A DNA stretch of 32,000 bases from assembly GCF_007923255.1 (NCBI RefSeq), contig NZ_VOHJ01000007.1:30462-62461 (forward strand). The letters are read 5' to 3'. This DNA is from Vulcaniibacterium thermophilum. Lineage in GTDB: Bacteria; Pseudomonadota; Gammaproteobacteria; Xanthomonadales; Xanthomonadaceae. The notes beneath the pieces were generated by a model. That model made no database searches. It saw nothing but the letters and a program-made list of their open reading frames with translations, and was not told the DNA's origin. This document shows positions 18,078 through 21,062 of the stretch, in pieces; within the stretch, counting starts at the first letter, position 1; every line of letters starts with the position of its first letter. The translations under genes and the position numbers were made by a program.

Positions 18078-18178
18078 CGGGAAACTTTAACGCGGGCCGC
18101 GCACCCTCGGGTCGGCCCCAGGTGGCCGCGGCGCGTGCGGCGGGCGAGCCTGAGCGCGGAAGCGACGGAGTCGAGGCC

Positions 18179-19483
18179 ATGACGCAACTGGCGCGGATCG
18201 GCGGCAGCACGCCGCAGTTCCACCGGTGGGACGATCTTCTGCGCGACGCCGCGGGCGATGCCGGCGCGCTGCTGGCCGCGTTGCAGCAGGCGCCGGCCGC
18301 GGACCGCGCGGGGCTGGCGGCACGCACGCTCGATGCCCTTAGCGATGCGCAGTTGTCCGCGCTCGCGGCGCAACCGCGCGGCGCCGAGACCCTGCGCGCC
18401 CTGCGCGACGCGGCGGCGGACGCGCCCGCCGGCGCGCCGGGCGCGGATGCGCGCGTGGCACGTGCGGACGGCGCGCTGCGGCAGGCCGACGAGGCCCGGT
18501 TGGCGAAGGAGAAACAGGAGCTGCTGCTCGATCTGGGCCAGATCGCGCTCGACATCGTCGGCATCTTCGAACCTACGCCGTTCGCCGATCTGACCAACGC
18601 CGGCATCTCGATCTGGCGCGGCAACTGGCTCGATGCCGGGCTGTCGGCCGTGGGCGTGATCCCCTACCTCGGCGATGCGGCCAAGCTGGGCAAGCTCGGC
18701 AAGTTCGGCAAGGTGATCGAACGGGCGGTCGAACTGGCGAAACTCGACCCCGGCTTCGCCGACCAGCTTCGGCCCGCGCTGAGGAAGATCAAGGACGCCA
18801 TCGACGCCGCGCCGGTCGATTCCCTGCCCGGCCCGGCGCGCGATGCCGTGCGGTCGATGAAGGGCAAGCTGGACGAGTTCTTCTCCGGCGCGGCCAAGAC
18901 CCCCACGACCGGTCCGCGAATGGCGGATGGCACGCCGCTTCCGGCCAACGTGAAGTTGGATCTGCGTGGAACGAGCGTGATCGATCCCGCTGCCGCTAGC
19001 CGCTTGACGGACGCCTCACGTTTGCCGCAGGTGAGCAATGGTAAGGTCGAGGTGACCCACGGACCCGAAGCAGGGACCACGAAGACCGTGATTCTTTCGA
19101 AGGAGGCGGGGCAGACGGTGACCAAGGACGGTTACACCATCACCAAGGACGCGAACGGCTTCCCGATCTTCAACAGCAGGTTCGACACCTTCGTTCCCGA
19201 TCATCTGCTGGGCACGGGCAAGGAGGCCGATCATTTCCGCTACGCCAACGAGCGTCTAGGCACTCTACTGCGTCAGAACCCCGAGCTCGCCAAAGACATG
19301 GGGCTCGACGCGGCGCAAGTGAAGCATCTGACCAAGCAGCCGCCCTCCTCGGCGCCGCCACCGGGTTTGACGTGGCACCATCACCAGGACGTCGGCCGCA
19401 TGCAGCTGGTCGTGCGTGCCGAGCACCAGGCCCATGTGCCGCACACCGGTGGCATGTCGATCTGGGGCGGTGGCTACAAGTAG
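18179..19483 (+). CDS. Polymorphic-toxin-like protein: unassigned N-terminus + PT-TG-like segment + C-terminal WHH-type HNH/EndoVII nuclease
   Basis: 434 aa from ATG 18179, with GGAG upstream; the track start at 18122 is a GTG extension. The C-terminus reads GFPIFNSRFDTF...DHFRYANERLG...GLTWHHHQDVGRMQLVVRAEHQAHVPHTGGMSIWGG, which matches the WHH-clade pattern. The mid region reads DIVGIFEPTPFADLTNAGISIWRGNWLDAGLSAVGVIPYLGDAAKLGKLGK and is pre-toxin-like. No signal peptide. Followed by immunity-type genes. Confidence 0.8.
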   Translation: MTQLARIGGSTPQFHRWDDLLRDAAGDAGALLAALQQAPAADRAGLAARTLDALSDAQLSALAAQPRGAETLRALRDAAADAPAGAPGADARVARADGALRQADEARLAKEKQELLLDLGQIALDIVGIFEPTPFADLTNAGISIWRGNWLDAGLSAVGVIPYLGDAAKLGKLGKFGKVIERAVELAKLDPGFADQLRPALRKIKDAIDAAPVDSLPGPARDAVRSMKGKLDEFFSGAAKTPTTGPRMADGTPLPANVKLDLRGTSVIDPAAASRLTDASRLPQVSNGKVEVTHGPEAGTTKTVILSKEAGQTVTKDGYTITKDANGFPIFNSRFDTFVPDHLLGTGKEADHFRYANERLGTLLRQNPELAKDMGLDAAQVKHLTKQPPSSAPPPGLTWHHHQDVGRMQLVVRAEHQAHVPHTGGMSIWGGGYK

Positions 19484-19516
19484 ACTCAGGCGCCCGATTC
19501 CTTTCGACCCTGGGCC

Positions 19517-19972
19517 ATGACCATCGACTGGGAAGAGTATCTCGACGTTCCGCCGGCGAGCGATGCCGACATCGCTCGCGTGGAGCACACGTTGGGCGTC
19601 ACGCTGCCGGATGATTTCCGCGATGCCTTGCGCCGGCATCAGGGCCGCCTGCCGACACGGAACGTCCTGCATGCCGACGCAATGAATCCCGTGACGTTCG
19701 GACCGCTGCTGCACGTCAGCAGCACGGCAGATGGCTATGCGGCCGACTACGAGATGACGCGGGTGGCGGCCGTGTGGCGGCGGTTGTATCCGAAGGTCGT
19801 GCCGATCGCCGACAACGGTGGCGGCAGTTGCTTCGCCTACGACTACGCCGCTGGAGAAAGGCAGCCGCCGATCGTTTTTCTCAACCACGAAGCCGAGCCC
19901 ACCGACCCGGCAGGAAAAATCCGCGTGGCGGATTCGTTTGCCGAGCTTCTTGCGAAGCTTCGCGAACAGTGA
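19517..19972 (+). CDS. SMI1/KNR4 (SUKH-1) family protein, putative cognate immunity protein
   Basis: 151 aa. SUKH-1 hallmarks: IARVEHTLGVTLPDDFRDALRRHQG near the N-terminus and VVPIADNGGGSCFAYDY near the C-terminus. Starts 34 nt after the toxin stop. Confidence 0.85.
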   Translation: MTIDWEEYLDVPPASDADIARVEHTLGVTLPDDFRDALRRHQGRLPTRNVLHADAMNPVTFGPLLHVSSTADGYAADYEMTRVAAVWRRLYPKVVPIADNGGGSCFAYDYAAGERQPPIVFLNHEAEPTDPAGKIRVADSFAELLAKLREQ

Positions 19973-19999
19973 CCCACCGGTCCCCGGAAGCGACGGAGC

Positions 20000-20356
20000 A
20001 TGTCCGAGCAGAGGATTTCACCCGAGTTGAAGCCGAGCGATGTGCGGTTGGAGAGAATCGGCGCGATCCTCGGAACGCTCCTGCCTGCAGAGGCGGACTG
20101 GATCACGGCCGAAGCGACCGTCGGCGACGACTGGTCGGAAGTCCGCTTTACCTACGGCGGCGCCGATGGAACGCCGCGGTATTTCTCGATGGCCGAGCAT
20201 CCGGCGACCGCGGCCGGCGATATCGGCGATGTCCTCATCGACATGCGCGAGCGGTTGCGGCAGGACGGCGGTGAGGTGTGGAACGGTTGCCGCTTCACCT
20301 TGCAGCGCGATGGGCGCTTCTCGCTCGACTTCGCCTTCGACCAGGCGACTTCGTAG
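20000..20356 (+). CDS. YezG/DUF600-like immunity-type protein
   Basis: 118 aa with GGAG 4 nt before the ATG. The pattern LPAEADWITAEATVGDDWSEVRFTY ... GGEVWNGCRFTLQRDGRFSLDFAFD mirrors the DUF600/YezG layout as I recall it (P.eW...a.v.dd.sev.F.y ... eW....l.l...G.f..df.y). Needs HMM confirmation. Confidence 0.65.
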   Translation: MSEQRISPELKPSDVRLERIGAILGTLLPAEADWITAEATVGDDWSEVRFTYGGADGTPRYFSMAEHPATAAGDIGDVLIDMRERLRQDGGEVWNGCRFTLQRDGRFSLDFAFDQATS

Positions 20357-20378
20357 CGGGCGCATGCAGGAGGCCCGC

Positions 20379-20810
20379 GTGAAGTCGTCCGATCTCATCC
20401 TCGCCTCGATCGCGGAGCGCCTGGCGACCGATCCGAAGGTCAACGCCGCGCCGTGGGATCAGTACGCACTCGTCGCCTGGTACGGCGACGGCGTGAGCAA
20501 GCTCAACGGGTTCCGCTACCGCGGCGATGCGCCAGGCGAGCCTGCCACTCCGGCCTCGTTCGAGATCGAGGACCTGCTGGACGATCTGCGTGCGGCAACG
20601 CAGGTGGAAGGCAAGGGGCCGTGGCGCGCGTGCGTGGTTCGGCTGGATCGCGCCGATGGGAAGGTGACGGTGGATTTCGAGTACGAGCGGCCCGAGGTGT
20701 GGGAGGTCACGCCGGCGACGGTGCGCCGGGTCGCGGAGCGCGCGAGATCCGCGGACGCCCTCACCCCAACCCCTCGTCCGCAGCACGGGAGAGGGGCCAC
20801 GTTGCCGTAG
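20379..20810 (+). CDS. Second YezG/DUF600-like immunity-type protein (diverged); C-terminus encoded by a REP copy
   Basis: In the frame of track ORF 20040..20810. The preferred start is GTG 20379, 6 nt after AGGAGG; ATG 20364 is the alternative. Layout PWDQYALVAWYGDGVSKLNGFRY ... GPWRACVVRLDRADGKVTVDFEYE parallels the previous ORF. The last roughly 17 codons (ALTPTPRPQHGRGATLP) lie in REP sequence. Confidence 0.55.
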   Translation: MKSSDLILASIAERLATDPKVNAAPWDQYALVAWYGDGVSKLNGFRYRGDAPGEPATPASFEIEDLLDDLRAATQVEGKGPWRACVVRLDRADGKVTVDFEYERPEVWEVTPATVRRVAERARSADALTPTPRPQHGRGATLP

Positions 20811-21012
20811 GTTGGGCTGAGCGCAGCGAAGCCCAACATCGCGCGGCCTCGTACATCAAACATCGCTTCAGGTGCAGACGAGCCATGCGCGCCTGCGGCG
20901 CGCGCCCTCACCCCGACCCCTCTCCGGCCCGCCGCAGCGCGGCGGGCGTTCGTCGGCGCGCGAGCCTGCGGCTTGCAAGCGCGCCTCCCCACCCCGCACG
21001 CGGGAGAGGGGC
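20757..21012. repeat. REP cluster at the island/zipA junction (two repeat families)
   Basis: CCCTCACCCC-type copies at 20757-20797 and 20904-20925, with a GGGAGAGGGG partner at 21002-21011; this is the same family as 15457-15645. An 8-bp-stem hairpin GTTGGGCT-N11-AGCCCAAC lies at 20811-20837. A perfect 9-bp hairpin GCCCGCCGC-AGC-GCGGCGGGC lies at 20927-20947. Confidence 0.75.
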
Positions 21013-21062
21013 TCAAACGCGGTGAGCGCTCGGTCGCGGCTGAAGCCGTTCCTGCAACGGGG

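Follow-up and report, generated by a model that had tools for sequence, protein, structure and literature searches.

Toxins in which a C-terminal nuclease tip of the WHH (HNH/EndoVII) type is followed by a SUKH-1 immunity gene have been described among the polymorphic toxin systems of bacteria (Zhang et al. 2011, PMC3113570; Zhang et al. 2012, PMC3482391). The routes given for Tox-WHH in the 2012 survey are the type II, V, VI and VII secretion systems (T2SS, T5SS, T6SS and T7SS), the Photorhabdus virulence cassette (PVC) and TcdB/TcaC, type III secretion not being included, and toxins delivered by type III systems are treated there as host-directed, save for one speculation on Shewanella (PMC3482391). 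At T6SS loci of Vibrio cholerae, sequential displacement of effectors leaves arrays of immunity genes (PMC5361080). Here we analysed a stretch of 32,000 nucleotides from Vulcaniibacterium thermophilum (the window, to which all coordinates without a locus name refer), in which a gap of 2,985 bp between ligA and zipA (18078-21062) holds four plus-strand genes. We conclude that this gap is very probably a chromosomal polymorphic toxin-immunity locus, gained in the V. thermophilum lineage and altered by exchange of the toxin tip, and that it most likely serves competition between bacteria. The gene content of the gap, its absence in relatives, its mosaic structure, its tip/immunity pairings and its foreign composition are shown directly, whereas toxicity, neutralisation, secretion, the direction of the exchange and the effects on transcription are inferred.

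A sequence-only reading of the window had placed smc (21806-25309), zipA (21063-21788) and ligA (15993-18077) on the minus strand, with the 2,985-bp gap between the last two occupied by four plus-strand open reading frames (ORFs) and a cluster of repetitive extragenic palindromic (REP) elements. Analysis of ORFs and Pfam domains confirmed the coordinates, the strand and the gap, and the ORFs are, as proposed, a nuclease-type toxin, a SUKH-1 protein and two YezG-like proteins, the fourth ORF being YezG-like by paralogy and sub-threshold in Pfam. No integrase or transposase was found in the gap, all four ORFs being toxin or immunity genes.

The junction was compared by a ZipA scan with one genome per species, which gave 80 loci from Lysobacter, Luteimonas, Vulcaniibacterium and allied genera (Lysobacteraceae). 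The junction could be judged in 76 of these species, and zipA and ligA were both placed in 73. The two genes are adjacent and co-directional in 73 of the 76 informative species, separated by 21-928 bp (median 202 bp), far less than the 2,985 bp of the window. The nearest relative (ZipA 86% and LigA 91% identical) has 40 bp from the zipA stop to the ligA start, and the junction of V. tengchongense measures about 150 bp. A tblastn search (E <= 1e-3) of the DNA up to 10 kb from zipA found none of the four cargo proteins at any of the 80 loci. The sequence-only reading had taken the gap for accessory DNA lodged in a core-gene junction and had suggested a search of related genomes for empty junctions or different cargo; its view was borne out by the adjacency of the two genes, by the absence of the cargo from all 80 loci and by the lower codon adaptation and GC content at third codon positions (GC3) of the cargo. 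Empty junctions were the usual finding, and in a Luteimonas-like clade a co-directional short-chain dehydrogenase gene lies between zipA and ligA (L061 10775-11521, L064 10742-11530, L069 10797-11543; also L067, L070 and L071), so other cargo has entered this site as well. In a Cognatilysobacter-like clade (L044, L052, L055) the adjacency is lost and ligA lies more than 10 kb away; past zipA there are unnamed ORFs of 173-186 amino acids (aa) in all three and one of 83 aa in L044 and L052, followed further on by unrelated genes (ABC-2 transporter, DUF6766, cysteine dioxygenase). The two genes are thus neighbours as a rule, with occasional changes tolerated between them, and the content seen in the window is unique to its lineage. 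Exact insertion end-points could not be located, the intergenic DNA being unalignable between species past the zipA stop and the ligA start.

The first gene of the gap (18179-19483, plus strand) encodes a polymorphic toxin of 434 aa when read from its ATG, made of a helical N-terminal carrier and a WHH/HNH-type DNase tip; an alternative upstream GTG at 18122 would give 453 aa. The nuclease models PF12639 (Colicin-DNase, 62.4 bits against a cut-off of 25) and PF14414 (WHH, 52.6 bits against 25.1) span residues 323-431, and the tip contains a TWHHH motif, reading ...GLTWHHHQDVGRMQLV...HTGG. The ORF is full length and aligns end to end with its homologues; the protein is annotated publicly as "HNH endonuclease" of V. 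thermophilum and is found identical on three contigs. Its sole match in a sequence search of the PDB is a weak one, of the nuclease tip to an Rhs toxin domain (8bd1, E 5e-4). The matches of the toxin fall into three groups, namely full-length relatives, proteins matching only residues about 105-242, and proteins matching only the WHH tip, the last including Bacillus T7SS toxins on plasmids and myxobacterial toxins of the SitA5 type. By protein comparison and AlphaFold2 modelling, residues 1-104 (18179-18490) form an alanine-rich helical region that is lineage-specific, and by profile search and alignment residues 105-242 (18491-18904) form a conserved carrier core without a family name.

P0005, the closest partial homologue of the toxin, shares 92% identity with it, confined to the N-terminal half, and is encoded on L083, a 2,257-bp metagenome contig that represents the same locus at about 90% nucleotide identity. 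Positions 1-808 of L083 match window 18089-18895 (91% identical), positions 1388-2079 match 20057-20745 (87% identical), and its final 62 bases match the 3′ end of zipA. Nucleotide homology breaks at 18895 and restarts at 20057. In the part that separates these blocks, L083 carries an Endonuclea_NS_2 (NS_2) tip with a YezG-like gene directly after it, and the window has a linker, the WHH tip, the SUKH-1 gene and a YezG-like gene that differs at its 5′ end. The exchanged module (18896-20056, plus strand) is defined by this break in homology and ends with the first 57 nt of the YezG-like gene. At the protein level the toxin and its L083 counterpart are 93% identical in residues 1-104, 91% in residues 105-242 and 22-30% in the tip (243-434); the corresponding values against Luteimonas WHH toxins are 33-37%, about 75% and 70-81% (about 80% overall), and Luteimonas homologues in general are 32-40% identical in residues 1-104. 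Since L083 shows the same locus and the same front half with a different tip, the gap is read as a polymorphic toxin locus that has exchanged its tip together with the immunity module. On these alignments the island is a resident polymorphic-toxin locus rather than a one-off insertion, and exchange of tip plus immunity by recombination is the simplest reading of it. The REP stretch of the window is replaced in L083 by 116 bp of unrelated sequence.

Luteimonas carries the same carrier at a different fixed locus (ppa...Asp_Arg_Hydrox), with either WHH and SUKH-1 or NS_2 and a YezG-like gene. Upstream of the carrier toxin this locus also has a CdiI_2 immunity gene and, in L085, a toxin-like RNAse_A_bac gene (L084 3591-3878; L085 8811-9895); because of these genes, it is a compound toxin/immunity locus.

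Composition follows the same boundaries. Sliding GC, GC3 and codon-usage analysis, which had been suggested together with the proposal of accessory DNA, found the cargo foreign, with GC3 of 0.76-0.80 in the tip and SUKH-1 gene against 0.91-0.94 in the core genes ligA, zipA and smc. GC3 is 0.895, near native, in the first 239 codons of the toxin, 0.796 in its tip, 0.763 in the SUKH-1 gene, 0.832 in the first YezG-like gene and 0.859 in the second, and codon adaptation to core genes falls in the same pattern. The sliding profile has a GC trough at 18.8-20.4 kb, and the exchanged module has a GC content of 0.64. Strongly foreign composition is thus limited to the segment of the tip and SUKH-1, the front half of the toxin being nearly native.

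The immunity genes follow the toxin on the same strand. The SUKH-1 (SMI1/KNR4) gene (19517-19972) begins 33 bp past the toxin, and its product matches PF09346 (SMI1_KNR4) with 75.9 bits against a cut-off of 25.4; a sequence search of the PDB gave no match. It also has a match (E 5.7e-10) to PDC-M40A, a candidate defence family of PADLOC, and this probably reflects shared SUKH ancestry and not a defence role; as this is the single PADLOC match, to a candidate family only, identity of the locus as a defence system was rejected. The first YezG-like (DUF600) gene (20000-20356) reaches 26 bits with PF04634 (cut-off 21.7), falls outside the narrower subfamily TIGR01741 (29.9 bits against 82), and is 78% identical to the YezG-like gene directly after the NS_2 tip in L083. 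The second, divergent paralogue (20364-20810, 148 aa), which has a homologue in L083, is related to the first by BLASTP (E 2e-7) and by a Smith-Waterman score of 86, against a maximum of 58 in 5,000 shuffles (none reaching 86); with PF04634 it scores 17.1 bits (E 0.0065), under the 21.7 cut-off. Its last approximately 20 codons run into the first of the REP-like palindromic elements (about 20758-21015), which comprise three units of the CCCTCACCCC...GGGAGAGGGG type and one GTAGGTTGGGCTGAGCGCAGCGAAGCCCAAC unit.

A WHH tip is followed by a SUKH-1 gene in all five loci examined (the window, L084, L088, L093 and L176), and an NS_2 tip by a YezG-like gene in the three annotated from stored Pfam hits (L083, L085 and L094). 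The published pairings of Tox-WHH with Imm-SUKH and of DUF600 with Tox-NucA (PMC3482391) agree with those seen here. These pairings point to SUKH-1 as the cognate immunity to the WHH tip, and suggest that the YezG-like genes are orphan immunities to a NucA/Endonuclea_NS_2 tip which the toxin of this genome does not carry.

The carrier core is marked by the motif LDxxQxxLDIVGIFEPTPFAD...IPYxGDxAKLGKxGK, and neither residues 1-250 of the window toxin nor 74 aligned family members gave a match in Pfam or NCBIfam for it. With a profile of the core, 3,496 cluster representatives were recovered at E <= 1e-3, of which 323 reached E <= 1e-30; most members are 250-500 aa long. The tips joined to this carrier include WHH, Endonuclea_NS_2, CdiA_C, Tox-REase-7, Ntox46, HNH and TNT, and no known trafficking domain was found by Pfam even in members of 571-1,181 aa. 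Residues 1-250 are all-helical in an AlphaFold2 model, which has a mean predicted local distance difference test (pLDDT) score of 83.6 and values of 88-98 over residues 21-110; a Foldseek search of the PDB with this model gave no match below E 0.4. The model has a low-confidence loop at 146-162, adjoining the invariant residues P162, G165, K169 and K172, and the loop may serve in recognition or processing. The most conserved residues of the carrier lie in or next to the sole low-confidence segment of the model (residues 146-174; window 18614-18700). PT-TG (PF14449; PMC13483458) likewise sits just before the toxin tip, and in both domains the most conserved residues, including Gly and Asp, lie in a loop modelled with low confidence. 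The carrier differs in its distinct motif IPYxGDxAKLGKxGK and in lacking a Pfam match; PF14449 gave no match to the window domain at E <= 10 and none among the 74 members at E <= 1, so PT-TG identity was rejected. The likeness is a resemblance, not membership.

Most members of the carrier family examined are lone two-gene cassettes among housekeeping genes. Non-flagellar type III clusters directly adjoin carrier genes in L086/L087 (Parasphingorhabdus litoris), L088, L094/L095 and L172; in L094/L095 the carrier member has 1,181 aa and the adjoining cluster has SctQ, R, S, T, U, D, C, N and V. Eighty metagenome loci were gathered with the core profile and searched with the type III proteins of the linked contexts. 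Type III family genes were found within 10 kb in 10 of the 30 metagenome loci having at least 8 kb of flank, and three contexts are additional to these. The genes within 10 kb of carriers are SctC, D, J, N, Q, R, S, T, U and V, and the linked loci are L086, L088, L094, L106, L107, L120, L121, L127, L140, L150 and L172 (toxin match at about 10001 in most). With near-duplicates merged, the 10 metagenome loci stand for no fewer than six independent lineages, and the secretin is present in several of them. As a control, the same type III search over 1.38 Mb around zipA in 80 genomes found nothing.

In about ten loci a DUF1521 gene stands directly upstream of the carrier toxin (L106 8755-9690 and L140 8855-9673; also L099, L101, L102, L108, L112, L123, L150 and L151), which suggests that DUF1521 and the carrier toxin form a conserved gene pair. 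The domain DUF1521 undergoes calcium-induced self-cleavage; it is found in the type III-secreted proteins NopE1 and NopE2, and also in a Vibrio coralliilyticus protein encoded within a type III cluster (PMC6506597). A Caulobacter hibisci protein shares 94% identity with the SctV protein from one of the linked loci, whose nearest relatives are in Rubrivivax, Piscinibacter and similar environmental Burkholderiales; used to look for a type III system in V. thermophilum, a linked SctV gave only Caulobacter and Burkholderiales relatives among the 120 matches listed. It is possible, if doubtful at present, that the carrier marks a large undescribed class of polymorphic toxins, nuclease and other, exported by a non-flagellar type III system of environmental bacteria.

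For the window itself the type III link is guilt by association at the level of the family, the 32-kb stretch containing no type III genes. If the type III reading is true, the window cassette would be a stand-alone member that uses a system encoded elsewhere, or one that has been freed from that dependence. Two other routes are possible, namely export as a T6SS cargo effector and release by lysis. No PAAR, VgrG, Rhs or other T6SS marker was found in the toxin by Pfam and no T6SS family in the annotated neighbours, the non-Pfam markers FIX and RIX not having been tested. XVIPCD proteins exist elsewhere in Vulcaniibacterium (PMC11253643); the Xanthomonadales type IV secretion system (T4SS) appears an unlikely route, because the nuclease domain ends the toxin and leaves no room for a C-terminal XVIPCD.

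Taking the gene content, the comparisons and the composition together, we propose that the locus was acquired in the V. thermophilum lineage and that its toxin would act through a C-terminal WHH/HNH-type DNase tip borne on a carrier (residues 1-242), with SUKH-1 binding and neutralising the tip in the producer. The YezG-like pair would be partnerless immunities, matching the NucA/Endonuclea_NS_2 tip that the sister lineage has at the same locus. Homologous recombination, with crossovers at the end of the carrier core and inside the YezG-like gene, would have exchanged the module 18896-20056, and the immunities that were kept may protect against relatives still firing the other tip.

Consequences for ligA may be expected as well. 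The 101-bp divergent spacer between the ligA and toxin starts (18078-18178) is 91% conserved in L083 and probably holds the promoters of both genes. Because the cassette diverges from ligA and converges on zipA, ligA would be transcribed from its own promoter in or near this spacer; co-transcription with zipA would need 3 kb of read-through antisense to four genes. The uncoupling of ligA from the smc-zipA transcript, which the sequence-only reading had considered probable, would follow from the gene orientations. Promoter and terminator scans gave no more matches than in shuffled sequence and no sigma-70 consensus in the spacer, such scans being uninformative at 72% GC. An exact 14-nt repeat, CGGAAGCGACGGAG, is present at 18157-18170, just before the toxin start, and at 19985-19998, just before the start of the first YezG-like gene, the latter copy falling within the module that was exchanged. 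The repeat may act in ribosome binding or in regulation at both genes, or it may have been left by the donor locus.

Several observations speak against parts of this proposal. No secretion signal, trafficking domain or secretion genes were recognisable in the toxin or the 32-kb window (Pfam, NCBIfam), so that delivery of the toxin to another cell is only assumed. The NS_2-tipped toxins of L106 and L140 are followed by small ORFs without a Pfam match, and the NS_2/YezG pairing is therefore not universal. The second YezG-like ORF may be decaying, as it is sub-threshold in Pfam and ends inside a REP element. In L083 the toxin gene has a 1-nt insertion near its 5′ end, at about 150-170, and the homologue of the fourth ORF (1695-2079) matches in two overlapping frames; these irregularities are either assembly error or decay to a pseudogene. 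The L083 tip is also low in GC3, so that the direction of the tip exchange is undecidable from composition and the older of the two tip states cannot be told.

Descent of the locus from the ancestor of Lysobacteraceae, with repeated loss, would agree with the nearly native carrier half of the toxin (GC3 0.895), with the related cassettes in Luteimonas and with the lack of mobility genes and target-site duplications. We nevertheless consider it very improbable, since the locus is absent at the junction in all 73 informative relatives, including the closest, with its 40-bp gap, and V. tengchongense, the Luteimonas cassettes occupy a different locus, and the tip, SUKH-1 and YezG-like genes are compositionally foreign; carriers forming one shallow clade with empty-site outgroups is the pattern so far. 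A carrier of 240 residues found on many unrelated tips, together with matching and orphan immunities, is the signature of exported polymorphic toxins, and members of the family cluster with secretion genes. That the toxin stays unexported and the locus is an intracellular module, serving as a toxin-antitoxin addiction cassette or in abortive infection against phages, is for these reasons hardly more probable than an ancestral locus. HNH nucleases do occur in defence systems, no secretion signal or genes were found nearby, and SUKH-1 has its match to PDC-M40A at E 5.7e-10, but the toxin and both YezG-like proteins are without a PADLOC match.

The gap might also be a decaying remnant, with genes no longer expressed or functional and only its position worthy of note, as could be argued from the fourth ORF running into a REP element, the toxin frameshift and disrupted fourth ORF of the L083 copy, and the failure to detect a promoter. 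This we regard as about as improbable as an intracellular module, because the toxin ORF is full length, keeps the WHH motif, aligns end to end with homologues and recurs unchanged on three contigs, and because SUKH-1 and the first YezG-like gene are intact and above Pfam thresholds. Some narrower identities were also considered and rejected. Plasmid carriage is not indicated, matches in PLSDB being limited to the WHH tip (Bacillus T7SS toxins) and the carrier being absent from PLSDB plasmids; as for a bacteriocin of the colicin or pyocin type, the toxin matches in its DNase domain only, with no receptor-binding or translocation domain, and no lysis gene is present in the gap. An integrative genomic island was rejected likewise, as there is no integrase or transposase in the gap, no tRNA gene in the 32-kb window and no convincing flanking repeat, the direct repeats at the island being only short, chance-level matches.

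The genes bordering the locus are intact. On the left, ligA (NAD-dependent DNA ligase) encodes 694 aa with all eight Pfam NAD-ligase domains, and its N-terminus aligns to relatives from residue 1-6. On the right, zipA has a ZipA_C domain (129 bits) and can be aligned with relatives at its C-terminus as far as the stop codon; an identical ZipA is encoded on contig BNCF01000001.1 of assembly GCA_014656335.1. The smc gene, with SMC_N and SMC_hinge domains, lies upstream of zipA. An Rfam scan of 15-22 kb found no non-coding RNA at gathering score. On the far side of ligA, between it and an EpmA-like gene of the class II tRNA-synthetase type, are a small ORF with a DUF559 domain (Vsr-like endonuclease fold, 118 bits; about 15652-15975, minus strand) and REP-like palindromes at 15455-15502 and 15602-15645; in the gene list of the public contig the DUF559 ORF falls in an uncalled gap of 788 bp.

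The island shows a toxin-immunity cassette settling in a highly conserved gene junction of gamma-proteobacteria, and a tip exchange caught with both crossover points visible at the nucleotide level. As an island it is of an ordinary, known kind. What is new here is the carrier domain, which is common (thousands of clusters) yet nameless and resembles no solved structure, together with the repeated occurrence of its genes beside those for type III secretion and NopE-type proteins; this is the lead of interest. If the link is true, type III secretion would be a route for toxins with immunity genes and orphan-immunity arrays, the hallmarks of conflict of bacterium against bacterium. Immunity-linked polymorphic toxins tied to type III secretion would turn the purpose of environmental type III systems into a testable question.

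The locus can be compared with several described systems. The known examples of YeeF/YezG-type pairs, in which a NucA-type toxin is joined with a DUF600 immunity protein, are Gram-positive LXG toxins exported by the T7SS. The likeness to these pairs is seen in L083, L085 and L094, where a YezG-like gene comes directly after an NS_2 tip; the window differs in that its YezG-like genes are without a NucA-type partner. With the Tox-WHH/SUKH-1 systems the window shares a C-terminal WHH nuclease followed by SUKH-1, a tip that varies on a conserved N-terminus, and extra immunity genes downstream. Its toxin, unlike the published Tox-WHH proteins, has none of their trafficking marker domains, and its carrier is without a Pfam or NCBIfam family. 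As in the effector displacement of V. cholerae and the orphan immunities of Rhs and contact-dependent inhibition (CDI) loci, a new tip-immunity module would have come in and the old immunity would have been kept downstream; the differences lie in the lack of an adjoining secretion cluster, the position at a housekeeping junction and the right-hand crossover, which falls inside an immunity gene. Carocins S1 and S3 of Pectobacterium are nuclease bacteriocins with immunity proteins, reported to exit via type III machinery (PMC8672553). They resemble the window in combining a nuclease toxin with immunity and a proposed type III link, a likeness by description only; the carocin report concerns the flagellar apparatus, and for the window the type III link is one of association at the level of the family.

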